Source: Bacillota bacterium | GTDB taxonomy: Bacteria > Bacillota > Dehalobacteriia > UBA4068 | Assembly (NCBI GenBank): GCA_050949225.1 | Contig: JBMNFI010000001.1 | Coordinates: 596,378 to 660,377, forward strand | Length of the DNA stretch: 64,000 bases | Reading direction: 5' to 3' | Shown here: piece after piece, positions 4,572 to 49,533 of the stretch | Position numbering within the stretch: the stretch's first letter is position 1 | How the letters are laid out: every line of letters starts with the position of its first letter | Made by a program: the position numbers and the translations under genes | Notes under the pieces: generated by a model | The model's input: only the letters and a program-made list of their open reading frames with translations | What the model was told of the DNA's origin: nothing | Database searches by the model: none

Positions 4572-5774
4572 CTACTCACTCACAGAAGAAACAACCCCGG
4601 CTCCCACTGTTCTGCCACCCTCACGAATAGCAAAATGCAAACCAGCTTCAATAGCAATCGGGATAATCAATTCTATTGTCATCTTAATGTTATCACCGGG
4701 CATTACCATCTCTACTCCCTCAGGAAGATGTGCTACGCCTGTTACATCTGTAGTTCTAAAGTAAAACTGTGGCCTGTAACCATTGAAAAACGGCGTATGA
4801 CGACCGCCCTCTTCCTTGGTCAAAATGTATACTTCCCCTTCAAATTTCGTGTGTGGCTTGATGCTGCCGGGTTTAGCTAAAACCTGACCTCTTTCCACAT
4901 CCTTACGCTCAACACCGCGCAATAAACAACCTACATTGTCGCCGGCTTCTGCAAAATCTAACAGCTTGCGGAACATTTCCACCCCGGTTACAACCGTAGA
5001 ACTCGTCTCTTCCTGTAAACCAACAATATCTACTGTATCTCCAACGCTGATAGTTCCTCTTTCCACACGACCGGTAACAACTGTACCACGACCCGTAATG
5101 GTAAAAACGTCTTCTATCGGCATCAAGAAAGGTTTATCCTTATCTCTTTCAGGTGAAGGAATGTATTCATCAACTTTATCCATCAGCTGCCATATCGGAC
5201 TGCAATCCTCACAATCACGAGACCCGCAACCGCATTGCAAAGCTTTTAAAGCTGAGCCGGCAATAATTGGGGTGTCATCTCCGGGAAATTCATACTCGGA
5301 AAGCAGCTCTCTGATTTCCATCTCTACCAATTCCAGTAATTCTTCATCATCTACCTGGTCTGCTTTATTCATGAATACCACAATATAAGGTACTCCTACT
5401 TGACGTGCTAAAAGGATATGCTCTCTGGTTTGAGGCATTGGACCGTCGGCTGCACTAACAACCAAGATAGCTCCATCCATCTGAGCTGCACCGGTAATCA
5501 TGTTTTTTACATAGTCGGCGTGACCGGGACAGTCTACATGGGCATAATGCCTTTTTTCTGTCTCATATTCCACGTGTGATGTATTAATCGTAATACCACG
5601 TTCTCTTTCTTCCGGAGCTGCGTCAATCTGATCATAGGCCTTAACCTCTGCTCCTCCTGCTTTTGACAAGCACAAAGTAATTGCTGCCGTCAAGGTTGTC
5701 TTACCGTGATCCACGTGACCAATTGTACCAATGTTTACGTGCGGCTTTGTTCTCTCAAATTTCTGTTTTGCCAT
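4572..5774 (-). CDS. tuf: Elongation factor Tu (copy 1, str-operon copy)
   Basis: 400 aa starting [28 protein letters not shown], with the GHVDHGKT and DCPGH GTPase motifs. Follows fusA. Confidence 0.97.
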
Positions 5775-20323: not shown

Positions 20324-21526
20324 CTACTCACTCACAGAAGAAACAACCCCGGCTCCCACTGTTCTGCCACCCTCACGAATAGCAAAATGCAAACCAGCTT
20401 CAATAGCAATCGGGATAATCAATTCTATTGTCATCTTAATGTTATCACCGGGCATTACCATCTCTACTCCCTCAGGAAGATGTGCTACGCCTGTTACATC
20501 TGTAGTTCTAAAGTAAAACTGTGGCCTGTAACCATTGAAAAACGGCGTATGACGACCGCCCTCTTCCTTGGTCAAAATGTATACTTCCCCTTCAAATTTC
20601 GTGTGTGGCTTGATGCTGCCGGGTTTAGCTAAAACCTGACCTCTTTCCACATCCTTACGCTCAACACCGCGCAATAAACAACCTACATTGTCGCCGGCTT
20701 CTGCAAAATCTAACAGCTTGCGGAACATTTCCACCCCGGTTACAACCGTAGAACTCGTCTCTTCCTGTAAACCAACAATATCTACTGTATCTCCAACGCT
20801 GATAGTTCCTCTTTCCACACGACCGGTAACAACTGTACCACGACCCGTAATGGTAAAAACGTCTTCTATCGGCATCAAGAAAGGTTTATCCTTATCTCTT
20901 TCAGGTGAAGGAATGTATTCATCAACTTTATCCATCAGCTGCCATATCGGACTGCAATCCTCACAATCACGAGACCCGCAACCGCATTGCAAAGCTTTTA
21001 AAGCTGAGCCGGCAATAATTGGGGTGTCATCTCCGGGAAATTCATACTCGGAAAGCAGCTCTCTGATTTCCATCTCTACCAATTCCAGTAATTCTTCATC
21101 ATCTACCTGGTCTGCTTTATTCATGAATACCACAATATAAGGTACTCCTACTTGACGTGCTAAAAGGATATGCTCTCTGGTTTGAGGCATTGGACCGTCG
21201 GCTGCACTAACAACCAAGATAGCTCCATCCATCTGAGCTGCACCGGTAATCATGTTTTTTACATAGTCGGCGTGACCGGGACAGTCTACATGGGCATAAT
21301 GCCTTTTTTCTGTCTCATATTCCACGTGTGATGTATTAATCGTAATACCACGTTCTCTTTCTTCCGGAGCTGCGTCAATCTGATCATAGGCCTTAACCTC
21401 TGCTCCTCCTGCTTTTGACAAGCACAAAGTAATTGCTGCCGTCAAGGTTGTCTTACCGTGATCCACGTGACCAATTGTACCAATGTTTACGTGCGGCTTT
21501 GTTCTCTCAAATTTCTGTTTTGCCAT
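20324..21526 (-). CDS. tuf: Elongation factor Tu (copy 2, upstream of rpmG-secE-nusG)
   Basis: 400-aa protein, 100% identical to copy 1. The nucleotide identity coincides with the CDS. Confidence 0.97.
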
Positions 21527-37597: not shown

Positions 37598-37746
37598 AGA
37601 ATAAAGCATCTGTCTTTTTCTTTATTCGTAAAAGGCCTATAGCCTACTATATTCTATGTGAACATTATCATAAAAGTGATATTAACATATTGCTTTTCCT
37701 AAGCATAAACTATAAACAAATAATTCTTTTAGGAGAGGTGTTTTTT

Positions 37747-38343
37747 ATGAAAGGTTTTTGTAATACCGGTAGTAAATGTAGAAAACCATCAAGTCCCCCC
37801 AAAGGCGTAAAATGTCTAACACAATGTGTCCTGGATAGCTGCAAACAGTGTATCGAGGTAAGTACGGAAATCAAATTACCCATCCAACAACCAAGCGTCA
37901 GAAGCAGCAGTCTGCCTCCGGTCGGCACCTGCATTCCTATCAATCCCGCCGGCCAGATAAATTGTCAGGAAATCAGCCGTGAATGCACTTGTGAAGGTAT
38001 GTGTTTATCAACCGTGTTGTTTAATTATCCTATGCAATTGCATAATCCTTGTAATCCCTGTGATGCCATGTTCTATAATATTACCTCCATGGAAAATGTT
38101 GCCCTGTGCTGTACCGCAGATTCGCAGCTCGATTGCGTAAACACACGCATCATTTCAGCAAAAGCCGTGGTAACAAATGTGGATTGTGAAAATATCACAA
38201 TCACTATTAAATTATGGGTTGATACCGAATACCATCAAACCGCCTATCAAGAAATTTGCATGCCTCAAGCTTATGTAACCGAAAAACGTATTTGTGATGA
38301 AGGTATGTCCCCCTGTGAATTCAACCAAAGAAGAACCAGATAA
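37747..38343 (+). CDS. Cysteine-rich protein of unknown function (~198 aa, ~24 Cys), candidate spore-coat/structural protein
   Basis: The ATG after GGAGAGG gives MKGFCNTGSKCRKPSSPPKGVKCLTQCVLDSCKQCIE.... There is no signal peptide. It is flanked by terminators on both sides. Confidence 0.55.
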   Translation: MKGFCNTGSKCRKPSSPPKGVKCLTQCVLDSCKQCIEVSTEIKLPIQQPSVRSSSLPPVGTCIPINPAGQINCQEISRECTCEGMCLSTVLFNYPMQLHNPCNPCDAMFYNITSMENVALCCTADSQLDCVNTRIISAKAVVTNVDCENITITIKLWVDTEYHQTAYQEICMPQAYVTEKRICDEGMSPCEFNQRRTR

Positions 38344-40730: not shown

Positions 40731-40775
40731 TTAATTAAATCACACATCATTTTTCCTACTATTCCCATTATCAAA

Positions 40776-40803
40776 CCCCCTCAAGCCTGAAGGCTTGAGG
40801 GGG
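40776..40803 (-). terminator. GC-rich hairpin (ccccctcaagcc tgaa ggcttgaggggg) 3' of the lipoprotein gene
   Basis: 12-bp perfect stem with a short U-tract. Confidence 0.4.
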
Positions 40804-40826
40804 TATTTAATATTCTATTTAGTATT

Positions 40827-41357
40827 CTACTTGACATTATAATTGGTATATTTTTTATCCAACTTCTTTACCACTGTCAATAATTCTTGCGGCATTTCAT
40901 AATAGCCCTCTCTGCCACCGGGCGTATTCCCGGTCCCCGCCTCGGGTTTGCCACTGCCAATACTACCATAAGCAACCTCATCATACATAGCAATCGTCGT
41001 ATTATCATTAAACTTAATGTAATATGATTCCATACCCGTCAGTTGTCTTGCCGCTGTAGCTACCTGCCATTGTTCAAATTGCACAGCATCAATCAATTCC
41101 TGAATCTCCTCTGGATTTGTCACTTCAAATGAACAAACTTCCCTTTCTCTATGAAATCCCGCCCAAATCGTTACAGCGTCCGACTCCAGACTATATTTTT
41201 CAGCCAACATCGCTCCCTCCAACACCTCTGCCTGCTCTGTCTGATCATGATTTCTGACATCCTTCAGGTCATCAGCCTTGTTGCAACCACCTACAAGCAA
41301 ACCCAAGCACAGTAAACTGATCACCATCAACATAAACCTTCTTTTTATTAACATCAT
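40827..41357 (-). CDS. Putative lipoprotein (176 aa)
   Basis: Signal peptide with a lipobox-like LLVGGC. Only 25 nt downstream of the 505-aa secreted protein gene. Confidence 0.55.
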   Translation of the reverse strand: MMLIKRRFMLMVISLLCLGLLVGGCNKADDLKDVRNHDQTEQAEVLEGAMLAEKYSLESDAVTIWAGFHREREVCSFEVTNPEEIQELIDAVQFEQWQVATAARQLTGMESYYIKFNDNTTIAMYDEVAYGSIGSGKPEAGTGNTPGGREGYYEMPQELLTVVKKLDKKYTNYNVK

Positions 41358-41382
41358 ATCACTCCTTTATAAATAAAAACTC

Positions 41383-42900
41383 TTAAACCCATCCCCAGTA
41401 ATTCTGATCACCAATAAATTTTAAAGGTAAATCCAGCGTCGGCAATTGATTCTTAGCCCACACAGCACAATTATAAAGTCGGCTACCGTCCACTCCGGCG
41501 AAAAATATTCTGGCAAATTGCGCATTATTACTTGCATAAGTAATACGTGTCCAACCCATAAAAACCCTATTGCTGCTGTTATTAGTTATATTAAAAGCAT
41601 TCGCCCAAGCTGTTGTTCCGGCACTACAACAATTCAAAAACACAAAACGCCACGACCCATTATAACCATCAATAGTAGTTCTTTGTAATGTAAAAACGAA
41701 CTCATTGTTCGAATAATTTTTAATGCCAATATCTCCAGCAGATCCATGTCCATGAAAATAAAAGCCATAGGCATCCGCACGTTTTAAGAAGCTGATTATC
41801 TTTGCTTTCATGCTGTAAGCATCGGAACACTCCTTAAAAACAGGTAGATATCCTAATGTAACAAAGCTGCTCGTCGCCTTACTCAAAATATCATCAACCT
41901 GATACATGCCTTTATTGCCATAAGCACCCGCTACAAGCTGCGCCTCATCCCCACCAATCACTTCTCCAGTCACCGCATCCACATGAAAGAGCAAAGAGCT
42001 ATCATCCGATTCAATCACATAAGCCAAACGCACAAATTGAGCCGGTTCATAAGGGCCACCCTCTGTCCAGTAAAAATTAGGCTGCACATATTTCAGATAT
42101 ACTTTGCCGACTTTAACCTCATTATAACCCTCTAACCCCTCCATCACTGGCTTTGCTTTGGCTACAGCTTCCCTTTCGCTGATTGCAGGGGTTTCCGTGT
42201 TGGCCTCCATTCCAAAAACACTAAGGAAGGCCACACTATTGTCAGCTCTTGCTACCGTCACCGTTACCCCATCATGCTCGTTAATCAAACCATTATCCAA
42301 CTTAGCCCGATAATAAAGCATCCAATAGTCCACCGTCTCCTCTGCTGACTTTACTAACTCATATTTATCACTAACTCCCAGCATCTCCAAAGCTTTTCCG
42401 CCTGTAGCCAGATATTGCTCTTCTGTAGTATCCCATGTTTCACCATCAGCAGCAATCACTTCATCACCGGAATTAAAAATGCTAATCAGCTGACCTTCTG
42501 CATTTAGGCAGAAAAACTGTTCTTTATCAATCGTATATTTCGTATAAGTCTCACCTGTATAATTCAAGATATCTTTCTTAACCTCGGCCTGCTTTACCTT
42601 ATCCACTCTAACACCCAAATCCTGCAAACTCGCTTGTTCTTTGGCAGATAAAATAGCTGTATCCACTTTTTTCACAGCATAACTCTTCTTGACAATATCA
42701 TGAATCCCTTCCTCAGTATCCGCCAACGCCAGCTCCTTTTGAGAAACCTCTTGCTTCAGAGCCAAGACACTTGAAGCTTCCTTACCCACGCTCTCCTCAT
42801 CAACAGCACCGGCATTCAGGACAGGCATCATCACCAAAACTGCCAATAAAGCCAGTACAACAATACCTAACATCTTTTTCTTCATAATCAAATCCTCCAT
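41383..42900 (-). CDS. Secreted protein with PepSY-like repeats and a C-terminal putative clan-CD-like cysteine-peptidase motif (His-Gly...Cys)
   Basis: Signal peptide MKKKMLGIVVLALLAVLVMMPVLNAGA. PepSY-like repeats such as LAYVIESDDSSLLFHVDAVTGEVIGGD. The C-terminus carries FYFHGHGSAG and FVFLNCCSAG. Confidence 0.5.
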   Translation of the reverse strand: MEDLIMKKKMLGIVVLALLAVLVMMPVLNAGAVDEESVGKEASSVLALKQEVSQKELALADTEEGIHDIVKKSYAVKKVDTAILSAKEQASLQDLGVRVDKVKQAEVKKDILNYTGETYTKYTIDKEQFFCLNAEGQLISIFNSGDEVIAADGETWDTTEEQYLATGGKALEMLGVSDKYELVKSAEETVDYWMLYYRAKLDNGLINEHDGVTVTVARADNSVAFLSVFGMEANTETPAISEREAVAKAKPVMEGLEGYNEVKVGKVYLKYVQPNFYWTEGGPYEPAQFVRLAYVIESDDSSLLFHVDAVTGEVIGGDEAQLVAGAYGNKGMYQVDDILSKATSSFVTLGYLPVFKECSDAYSMKAKIISFLKRADAYGFYFHGHGSAGDIGIKNYSNNEFVFTLQRTTIDGYNGSWRFVFLNCCSAGTTAWANAFNITNNSSNRVFMGWTRITYASNNAQFARIFFAGVDGSRLYNCAVWAKNQLPTLDLPLKFIGDQNYWGWV

Positions 42901-43133
42901 TTTACTTGTTGAGTGTTTTTACTATCTCATGATGTTAGGCAAACTATCTGTTAAGAACAATTGCCCCCCCCACAGAATAATTTATTCACCTCTTCGTATA
43001 TTAACATACTCCTCCTCCCTAGTCTGTCGAATAAAGTCGAACCGCACCAAAGTTAATCAACATTGACCTTGCAGCCAGACAAAAGACCGCTACAGATAAC
43101 CATCTATAGCGGCCGTTTACTCTCATTATTCGC

Positions 43134-43928
43134 TTATTTATTTCTCTGTACTCCATTATAATCAACATACCAATTATCCTTCAACAATAACTCGCTAATA
43201 GGAACAATCTCCAAATTATGCTCTTCAGTCAACTGTTTAAGTATTGGATCTAAGGCCTCAGCAGTGTGTTTGCCATTGTTATGAAAAAGGACAATATCAC
43301 CTTGACCAATATCTTTCATCACCCGTTCTTCGATTTCGGTGGCACTCAAATCTTTCCAATCCAAGCTATCAATAGACCACTGAATAGGCATAAACCCCAA
43401 ATTCTGGCACTTTTCAATCACGTTATTATTATAATCACCAAAAGGTGGTCTAAAGAGAACAGCCTCCTGTCCCGTGACTTCTTTAATCAGTTGATAATTA
43501 TCATTTAATTCCTGCGTGATTTGTTCATCAGTTAAAGAGGTAAAGTTCGGATGCGTCACCGAATGCAAACCTATTTCATGACCGCGGGAAGCAATTTCCC
43601 GAGCCATTTCAGGATAATCATTAATCCAAATATTAACCAAAAAGAAAGTCGTTTTTATCTCATATTTGTCCAAAATGTCCAAAATTTTCTCCGTTTTTTC
43701 CGCACCCCAACTGGCATCAAAACTAATAGAAAGTTGCTTCTTAGGGGTATCAACTTCATAAACAGGCAAAAGACGTACCGTCTGCGAAACAGCACTGATA
43801 AAATAATTGCCCTGTATATACGGTCCGGCAAATAAAAGTATCAATAAGACAACCAGCGCAAAAATAAAGCCTATTCTTTGTCGCACAAATTTAAGTAGCT
43901 TATCTTTTCTTTTTTGCAAAAGTTTCAC
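43134..43928 (-). CDS. Polysaccharide deacetylase (NodB-homology, CE4) family, membrane-anchored
   Basis: 264 aa. Motif 2 is HSVTH and motif 3 is RPPFG. Motif 1 is SFDAS (second Asp replaced). N-terminal TM anchor. Confidence 0.8.
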   Translation of the reverse strand: MKLLQKRKDKLLKFVRQRIGFIFALVVLLILLFAGPYIQGNYFISAVSQTVRLLPVYEVDTPKKQLSISFDASWGAEKTEKILDILDKYEIKTTFFLVNIWINDYPEMAREIASRGHEIGLHSVTHPNFTSLTDEQITQELNDNYQLIKEVTGQEAVLFRPPFGDYNNNVIEKCQNLGFMPIQWSIDSLDWKDLSATEIEERVMKDIGQGDIVLFHNNGKHTAEALDPILKQLTEEHNLEIVPISELLLKDNWYVDYNGVQRNK

Positions 43929-44167: not shown

Positions 44168-44176
44168 AAACTTACT

Positions 44177-44292
44177 CCTGGCAATGACCTACTCTCCCAA
44201 GGGCTCGCGCCCCCAGTACCCTTGGCGCAGAAGAGCTTAACTACTGTGTTCGGTATGGGAACAGGTGTGACCTCTTCGCCGTAATCACCAGG
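44177..44292 (-). rRNA. rrf: 5S ribosomal RNA
   Basis: The reverse complement, cctggtgattacggcgaagaggtcacacctgttcccataccgaacac...gagagtaggtcattgccagg, matches the 5S consensus. Confidence 0.9.
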
Positions 44293-44435
44293 AAACTTTT
44301 TTACTTATCTTAATCTTTCTGTCTTAACTATTTTCAGTTAAAGTATTTTGGCAATCCCTGCCTCAATTAGTATAACCCATATCACTATTTTTAGCAATAT
44401 GATCAAATCTTTAAAAACTACATAGTGAATTTTTT

Positions 44436-47520
<3,085 letters not shown>

Positions 47521-47943
47521 AATCTTGATAAATTTCTATTCCGTTTATCTTTTCTATCTCTTGCTCGCTTACTTAGTAATTTCTGTAATACCTGATTCCT
47601 ATACTCTTCTTCTCAAAAAATATAGTAACCAGCTACCTCATCACTTTCGCTTGCGCTTCACTATGCAGTTTTCAAAGATCTAAACTCCAGAGAAGTCTCT
47701 GGGAACTAAACAGTAAACTGAGCCATTAATCGACCTAGGAAATATCCATATTCCTTACCACCAACTTAGTATAACTATGTCATCACCTTCTGCATAATCC
47801 CTAACATACCTGAGTATGCCTACGGTTTACGCCTCGGCTCTTACTTGTTTTACTTGTCGCCAGTAGGAATATCTGAGCGATTATACAGACTATGTCAACA
47901 ATCTGTCAATACACTCAACAGCTCTTAAACGCCGGGATGTGCT

Positions 47944-49533
<1,590 letters not shown>

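Follow-up and report, generated by a model that had tools for sequence, protein, structure and literature searches.

The gene pair and its operon

The 64,000-nucleotide stretch of Bacillota DNA analyzed here, referred to as the window, carries on its minus strand two adjacent genes, one for a secreted protein that joins PepSY-like units to a putative clan CD peptidase domain and the other for a small partner lipoprotein. The first, called the protease gene below, occupies positions 41383..42900 as a maximal open reading frame (ORF) of 505 residues, and the second occupies positions 40827..41357 as an ORF of 176 residues. A gap of 25 nucleotides (41358..41382) separates them, in accord with a preliminary description of this DNA, and the strings quoted there (YVIESDDSSLLFHVDAVTGEVIGGD, FYFHGHGSAG and FVFLNCCSAG) are all contained in the 505-residue translation. 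Both proteins are recorded at NCBI as 'hypothetical protein' (MGI6361338.1 and MGI6361337.1, respectively) and are assigned to a metagenome-assembled genome (MAG) of the Bacillota. The spacing of the ribosome-binding sites and the NCBI gene calls suggest that the second ATG is the true start in both genes. In the protease gene this ATG is at 42885, gives a 500-residue protein and has GGAGG 8 nucleotides on its 5' side. In the lipoprotein gene it is at 41354 and gives 175 residues; the ribosome-binding site, AAGGAG (41362..41367), is located inside the intergenic gap, 7 nucleotides 5' of the ATG. Residue numbering follows the 505-residue ORF throughout, and all features of the pair are on the minus strand.

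A terminator scan found no terminator between the two genes. On the upstream side, the terminator of a deacetylase gene (43085..43114) insulates the pair from that gene. Past the lipoprotein stop codon a 13-base-pair GC-rich hairpin (40775..40804) would serve as the operon terminator; the scan scored this hairpin on the plus strand, and on the minus strand its TTTGA, with only three T residues, misses the T-run rule. Since two terminators flank the pair and none lies inside it, the pair appears to be an insulated, self-contained two-gene operon amid housekeeping genes. This agrees with the co-transcription proposed in the preliminary description, and the downstream adjacency of the lipoprotein gene recurs at homologous loci. 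A promoter-like site, TCGACA-16-TATGTT, is positioned 5' of the protease gene (43003..43030), but it is weak and matches the consensus only.

The protease begins with a Sec signal peptide (residues 6-32, 42805..42885) composed of MKKK, a hydrophobic core and an A-G-A|V site after residue 32. In the AlphaFold model this region is a predicted helix (residues 2-23) followed by a segment of low confidence, and the homologs begin alike. The signal peptide and the lipobox of the smaller protein are both visible in the sequences. Three PepSY-like α+β units follow (residues ~80-148, 156-234 and 238-320; 41941..42663), and the rest of the chain (residues 321-505; 41386..41940) is predicted to form a domain with the caspase-hemoglobinase fold that is characteristic of clan CD.

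The C-terminal domain

Close homologs of the protease are very rare. Only 9 proteins were found in 5.8 billion clusters, the full-length ones being 41-47% identical to the window protein, and a GTDB genome search for related loci returned a single match, a Peptococcaceae MAG. The C-terminal domain is considerably more widespread: an exhaustive profile search that used the last 184 residues retrieved 209 representative clusters at E<=1e-3, 123 of them at E<=1e-10. Some of these relatives derive from human-gut metagenomes. The family proteins are annotated only as 'hypothetical', and the domain has no model in Pfam or NCBIfam. The preliminary description had called for searches against peptidase families C11, C25, C13, C14 and CHAT and for a structure prediction. 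Both were carried out. The window protein matches none of the Pfam peptidase families Peptidase_C11, C13, C14, C25, CHAT, C50 and C80 at E<=1, and none of 112 family members matches them at E<=0.01.

Among 113 full-length copies of the domain, His385 is retained in 109, Gly386 in 105 and Cys425 in 108. Gly449 and Gly497 are invariant, Gly503 is present in 112 copies and Asp498 in 106. The family consensus around Cys425 is 'FVFLDAC'. As the His/Cys pattern of FYFHGHGSAG and FVFLNCCSAG is conserved in ~96% of these homologous domains, it is not a chance match.

A structural model of the window protein was built with AlphaFold on a 112-sequence alignment, and replaced an earlier AF2 model based on 8 sequences, which was mediocre (predicted local distance difference test score, pLDDT, of 64.6). 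The new model has a mean pLDDT of 90.7 and a predicted template modeling score (pTM) of 0.72; the pLDDT of the C-terminal domain is 88-98. The order of elements in the first half of the domain is β1 (323-329), α1, β2 (352-359), α2, β3 (377-383) and His385. These are followed by a small hairpin (390-406), β4 (419-423), Cys425, β5 (446-450), α4, α5 and β6 (493-497). His385 (in FYFHG-H-G; codon checked at 41746..41748) is thus located two residues past strand 377-383, and Cys425 (the second Cys of FVFLN-C-C; codon checked at 41626..41628) two residues past strand 419-423. The caspase-hemoglobinase fold consists of a central six-stranded sheet with about five flanking helices, and in its canonical clan CD layout the His is on loop L3 and the Cys is on loop L4 (PMC4357240). 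The modeled domain has this fold and places His385 and Cys425 on the corresponding loops.

The best match of the 112-sequence profile among PDB sequences is a CHAT peptidase (8tl0), at a marginal E=0.011. The alignment pairs 'FVFLDAC' of the family with 'LVVLNAC' of CHAT, so that Cys425 is aligned with the catalytic Cys. The dyad of CHAT 8tl0, H375/C422, is published and validated by mutation; the His-to-Cys spacing in the CHAT chain is 47 and, therefore, the matched residues are those of this dyad. As the fold and the dyad of the modeled domain fit, yet no Pfam peptidase family matches, the domain is best placed in clan CD outside every existing sequence family. His385 and Cys425 are its predicted catalytic dyad.

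The PepSY module

The preliminary description had recognized two PepSY-like segments. The fold was recognized correctly but the count was not, as the model contains three tandem α+β units that resemble the triplet of the YpeB C-terminal region (YpeB-C). YpeB-C is the best structural match of the PepSY region, and the propeptides of vibriolysin MCP-02 (3nqy) and fungalysin (4k90_B) are matched as well. Only the third unit comes near detection by Pfam (PF03413, 13.6 bits against a cutoff of 24, E=0.087). Within the family, PF03413 is matched by 23 of the 112 members, with E-values down to 6e-6, and DUF4901 by 22.

The module can be separated from the peptidase. Short family forms of ~200-218 residues carry the peptidase domain immediately after a signal peptide, and begin at the junction 'A-T-D-Q-A-G-x-F', which in the long forms comes after '...GEVIGGD'. 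At five of the homologous loci (designated by L numbers; here L011-L013, L017 and L032) a separate gene for a secreted PepSY protein lies just before that of the short form, and in L011-L013 and L032 the two genes overlap by 4 nucleotides. The separate PepSY protein is homologous to residues 159-318 of the window protein (E=6e-12) and the short peptidase form matches residues 339-504 (E=1e-18). The two modules are fused in one lineage and encoded by adjacent genes in another, which is good evidence, at the level of gene organization, that they function jointly.

The partner lipoprotein

The smaller gene product has a signal peptide, a lipobox and an invariant Cys at position +1, and by these features qualifies as a bacterial lipoprotein. 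The lipobox is LVGG-C in the window (Cys25, codon checked at 41283..41285) and LAAC, LTAC, IVGC or TVGC in the homologs. The mature protein consists of an acidic linker of ~25-40 residues, which is probably disordered, and a conserved domain of ~115 residues. No match was found in Pfam or NCBIfam at E<=1, the family Spore_YhcN_YlaJ included, and a PDB profile search with the lipoprotein family retrieved signal-peptide regions only.

This family is very rare, comprising 7 proteins in the profile search, and every member with usable context is encoded immediately downstream of a protease homolog. There is one copy in the window, three tandem copies in L001 (29-40% identical to the window protein, E 1e-21 to 1e-25), one in L004, where the gene overlaps the protease gene by 4 nucleotides, and two in L005/L006. 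Another copy is found in L016; the protease of this locus is just 27% identical to that of the window, but the lipoprotein encoded after it nevertheless reaches 75.7 bits with the family profile. The pairing is limited to one subclade. Most of 17 further loci from metagenomes lack a lipoprotein gene downstream, and at L015 and L019 the corresponding position is occupied by unrelated lipoproteins. Co-occurrence of the two genes thus runs in one direction only: the lipoproteins with usable context are all beside protease homologs, but most members of the protease family lack one. A 184-residue gene product downstream of the peptidase in L011 was considered as a further member and rejected, being Pro/Thr-rich with a C-terminal membrane anchor.

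A 42-residue mini-lipoprotein with a lipobox and the motif ...CGTDYVxYDCG is encoded directly after P0003-type peptidase genes at L003:8512-8640 and L004:9722-9850 (both on the plus strand). It follows the L003 protease and, in L004, a fragmented second copy of the protease, and replaces the 176-residue family there. The two protease paralogs of L004 are thus each accompanied by their own type of lipoprotein.

Neighbors of the protease family

The commonest neighbor in the family as a whole is an extracytoplasmic function (ECF) type sigma factor with a single-pass membrane partner. This association was found in six independent lineages (L001/L005, L003/L004, L011/L032, L021-23, L025-31 and L027); in L019 and L020 its place is taken by response-regulator or two-component genes. 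In L011 (2116-3150, plus strand) and L032 (1469-2503, plus strand) the outer domain of the putative anti-sigma factor is homologous to the PepSY region of the protease and ends in '...TTGEIIGGD'. The resemblance hints that the protease module and the sigma-factor switch may communicate with each other. That anti-sigma outer domains are PepSY-like in general was considered and rejected, because the other lineages do not share this property.

Proposed function and alternatives

We consider it probable, with some reserve, that the larger protein is a secreted zymogen-type clan CD cysteine endopeptidase, for which the PepSY triplet is a chaperone-inhibitor and the lipoprotein a cognate inhibitor, immunity or retention factor. 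The protease would be exported via Sec as a zymogen, with His385 and Cys425, on the loops after β3 and β4, forming the catalytic dyad. The N-terminal YpeB-like triplet would act as an intramolecular chaperone-inhibitor, much as the propeptides of M4/M36 peptidases do or YpeB does on SleB, and would keep the protease folded yet latent at the external surface of the membrane. The lipoprotein, tethered to the membrane and carrying its conserved domain on the acidic linker, would bind the protease either as a specific inhibitor or immunity factor or as a retention factor. The PepSY domains of YpeB have been proposed to embrace and inhibit SleB, 'akin to pro-domains in protease zymogens' (PMC13556211), and the clamp model of the SleB-YpeB-YlaJ complex sets a precedent for the role of the lipoprotein (PMC12331253).

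Several observations weigh against this model. The window proteins alone gave nothing significant in searches of Pfam, NCBIfam, PADLOC and PDB sequences, and the His region is misaligned in the marginal CHAT match. Residue 423 is Asn in the window protein and Asp in the family consensus. The model has no flexible linker between the third PepSY unit and β1, so that there is no evident sign of the prodomain being released by cleavage. Finally, the absence of the lipoprotein from most of the wider family implies that it is not essential to the enzyme.

A caspase fold can also serve without proteolysis, as a binding scaffold, or as a transpeptidase or ligase in the manner of legumain-type ligases and GPI8. 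For the present domain this is very improbable. The window protein retains the His, the Gly and the Cys, and the high conservation of the dyad, in a family that has diverged to ~20-25% identity, argues for catalysis. More serious, if still unlikely, is the possibility that the protein is a Sec-exported antibacterial toxin with a caspase fold, directed against surface proteins or cell-wall peptides of competitors, and that the lipoprotein confers immunity at the surface of the producer. Caspase-like C-terminal toxin domains exported via Sec are known in polymorphic toxin systems (PMC3482391). The diverged lipoprotein paralogs in tandem (three in L001, two in L005) resemble immunity-gene arrays, and peptidase subtypes have their own downstream lipoprotein, of either the A3 type or the 42-residue type. 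The distribution is rare and patchy, the homologous loci lie amid genes for an integrase, an RHS-core-like protein and LRR/SLH (leucine-rich repeat and S-layer homology) proteins, and housekeeping genes surround the window pair, which is an insulated insert. The architecture, however, does not appear polymorphic: all members carry the same C-terminal domain, with no exchange of it on a constant N terminus; a Pfam scan of the 112 members found no toxin-trafficking or pre-toxin domain. Most family members lack a downstream lipoprotein, and proximity to an ECF sigma/anti-sigma pair would sooner be expected of an exoenzyme with a regulated role in housekeeping or stress.

The same adjacency could mean that the protease takes part in extracytoplasmic signaling, cleaving the anti-sigma outer domain (or the lipoprotein) and thus controlling an ECF regulon, with the PepSY units mimicking the substrate or competing with it. 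We regard this as quite unlikely. The adjacency is most simply explained by the sigma factor doing no more than transcribing the protease gene. There is no homolog of the ECF sigma or anti-sigma factor in the window, the homologous loci have no evident promoter motif in common with it, and outside L011/L032 the anti-sigma outer domains are unrelated to PepSY. Equally slight is the chance that the system is a caspase-fold counterpart of a SleB-YpeB-YlaJ latch. The PepSY triplet and the lipoprotein would then hold the protease inactive until an envelope signal freed it. It would next cut a target at the surface, which in many relatives would be the anti-sigma outer domain, and so trigger an ECF sigma response. 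If true, this would represent a surface-located proteolytic signaling switch of the caspase type in the Bacillota.

Comparison with known systems

The clan CD peptidases include the C25 gingipains, CHAT, the C14 caspases, metacaspases and paracaspases, C13 legumain and C11 clostripain. No model of these existing families detects the new one, the domain of which is compact (~185 residues). Unlike gingipains, the new family has a prodomain of the PepSY type and has neither an Ig-like nor a C-terminal sorting domain after the peptidase.

The SleB-YpeB-YlaJ complex, which lyses the spore cortex in Bacillus, also combines an extracytoplasmic hydrolase with a triple PepSY protein and a lipoprotein encoded alongside. 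The triplet has been proposed to be a chaperone-inhibitor and the lipoprotein has been modeled as a part of the clamp (PMC13556211, PMC12331253). The window enzyme, however, is a predicted clan CD peptidase, whereas SleB is a lytic transglycosylase. YpeB is anchored by an N-terminal helix, whereas the PepSY units described here are fused to the enzyme or secreted separately. The window lipoprotein has no similarity to YlaJ/YhcN in Pfam, and nothing ties the window system to sporulation. The resemblance is one of mechanism and not of homology of the enzyme or the lipoprotein. The M4/M36 metallopeptidases (thermolysin, vibriolysin, LasB and fungalysin) are secreted with an N-terminal prodomain that contains FTP and PepSY. 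The predicted catalytic domain of the window protein is that of a cysteine peptidase of a different clan and is preceded by three PepSY-like units; FTP was not detected.

In the staphostatin-staphopain and Spi-SpeB systems a small inhibitor gene is located immediately downstream of the gene for a secreted cysteine protease and is inherited together with it. The window pair has the same arrangement, and lipoprotein immunity proteins of secreted toxins offer a further parallel. Unlike staphostatin and Spi, the partner is an extracytoplasmic lipoprotein, is at times encoded in tandem and has no sequence similarity to those inhibitors.

Within the searchable literature library, no paper was found to link PepSY with clan CD. 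What appears to be new, judging from the structural model, is an unnamed clan CD family with a prodomain of the PepSY type, one subclade of which also has a private lipoprotein. The finding is a new protease family and not a new principle of biology, and its importance is moderate for that reason. The clan encompasses caspases, gingipains, legumains and the CHAT proteases of CRISPR and CBASS defense, and new bacterial branches help to explain how the fold is regulated. PepSY, so far a partner of metallopeptidases and SleB, would here have been recruited to a cysteine protease, either fused or as a separate gene. This offers an independent test of PepSY as a general chaperone-inhibitor module of secreted hydrolases. 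The recurrent pairing with a private lipoprotein and with an ECF sigma factor leads to tractable hypotheses about inhibition, immunity and signaling, and the relatives from gut metagenomes suggest that the family may matter for gut protease biology.

Other features of the homologous loci

A secreted protein of ~131-136 residues is encoded between the DUF4367 anti-sigma-like gene and the peptidase gene in loci of the L001, L003, L004 and L005 types (L001:5360-5770, L003:4440-4835, L004:5613-6011 and L005:1196-1606). It is 59-79% identical between loci, has no Pfam match and is absent from the window. A conserved element, TTGTCA...TATATAGAGGGG, upstream of its gene may be an ECF-dependent promoter. 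No promoter motif common to the window and the homologous loci is evident.

Upstream of the peptidase homolog in L020 (1104-3810) are genes for a response-regulator-like protein, a 421-residue membrane protein and a 206-residue multi-pass membrane protein. The last is AgrB-like by eye, which suggests that control of the quorum-sensing type replaces the ECF sigma factor in that lineage.

A second family of secreted proteins of ~470-480 residues, with His/Cys-type motifs of its own, 'FLNGHxN ... GC(K/L)TAN', is present at L003:4942-6345 and L004:9993-11438 (both plus strand). Its signal peptide is 78-85% identical to that of the neighboring PepSY-peptidase, and it has no Pfam match. A distant paralogy to the clan CD domain was considered but is not detectable, since hhalign aligns the signal peptide only; the family may represent another uncharacterized thiol enzyme. 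Further along L003 (9843-11120, plus strand) is a gene for a 425-residue protein in which an RHS-core-like motif (...YDPVDRRFIQEDNAKDGDNWYAYCENNPLTNVDPLG) is followed by an unassigned C-terminal region. LRR and SLH-domain proteins are encoded nearby, and the gene looks like a toxin cassette in a variable region.

Surroundings of the pair in the window

The pair lies between ilvB and the rrn operon, beside a CE4 deacetylase, as was stated in the preliminary description. The ilvB/ilvN-like ORFs are downstream. The CE4/PdaB-like deacetylase gene (43134..43928, minus strand) is upstream and outside the protease operon, and the 5S/23S/16S rRNA genes are at 44176..49532. Other housekeeping genes of the window encode lysyl-tRNA synthetase, GreA and FolD-type domains. 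The deacetylase fits best the sporulation PdaB equivalog TIGR02764, but its score of 207.9 bits is under the trusted cutoff of 237.4, and naming it PdaB would be premature. The earlier suggestion of a germination- or sporulation-related pocket of envelope remodeling found no support, since neither ilvB nor the deacetylase nor rrn recurs beside any homolog at the homologous loci. Homologs of the ECF sigma factor, DUF4367 or the 136-residue protein are not encoded in the window.

Just past ilvN there is a cysteine-rich ORF (37690..38343, plus strand; 20 Cys in 217 residues) with a likely start at MKGFCNTG..., and no Pfam or NCBIfam family matches it. Elsewhere in the window two EF-Tu-like genes of 400 codons (4572..5774 and 20324..21526, both on the minus strand) are 100% identical over 1203 nucleotides. 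They represent either an assembly repeat or a duplication of tuf in which gene conversion keeps the two copies the same.

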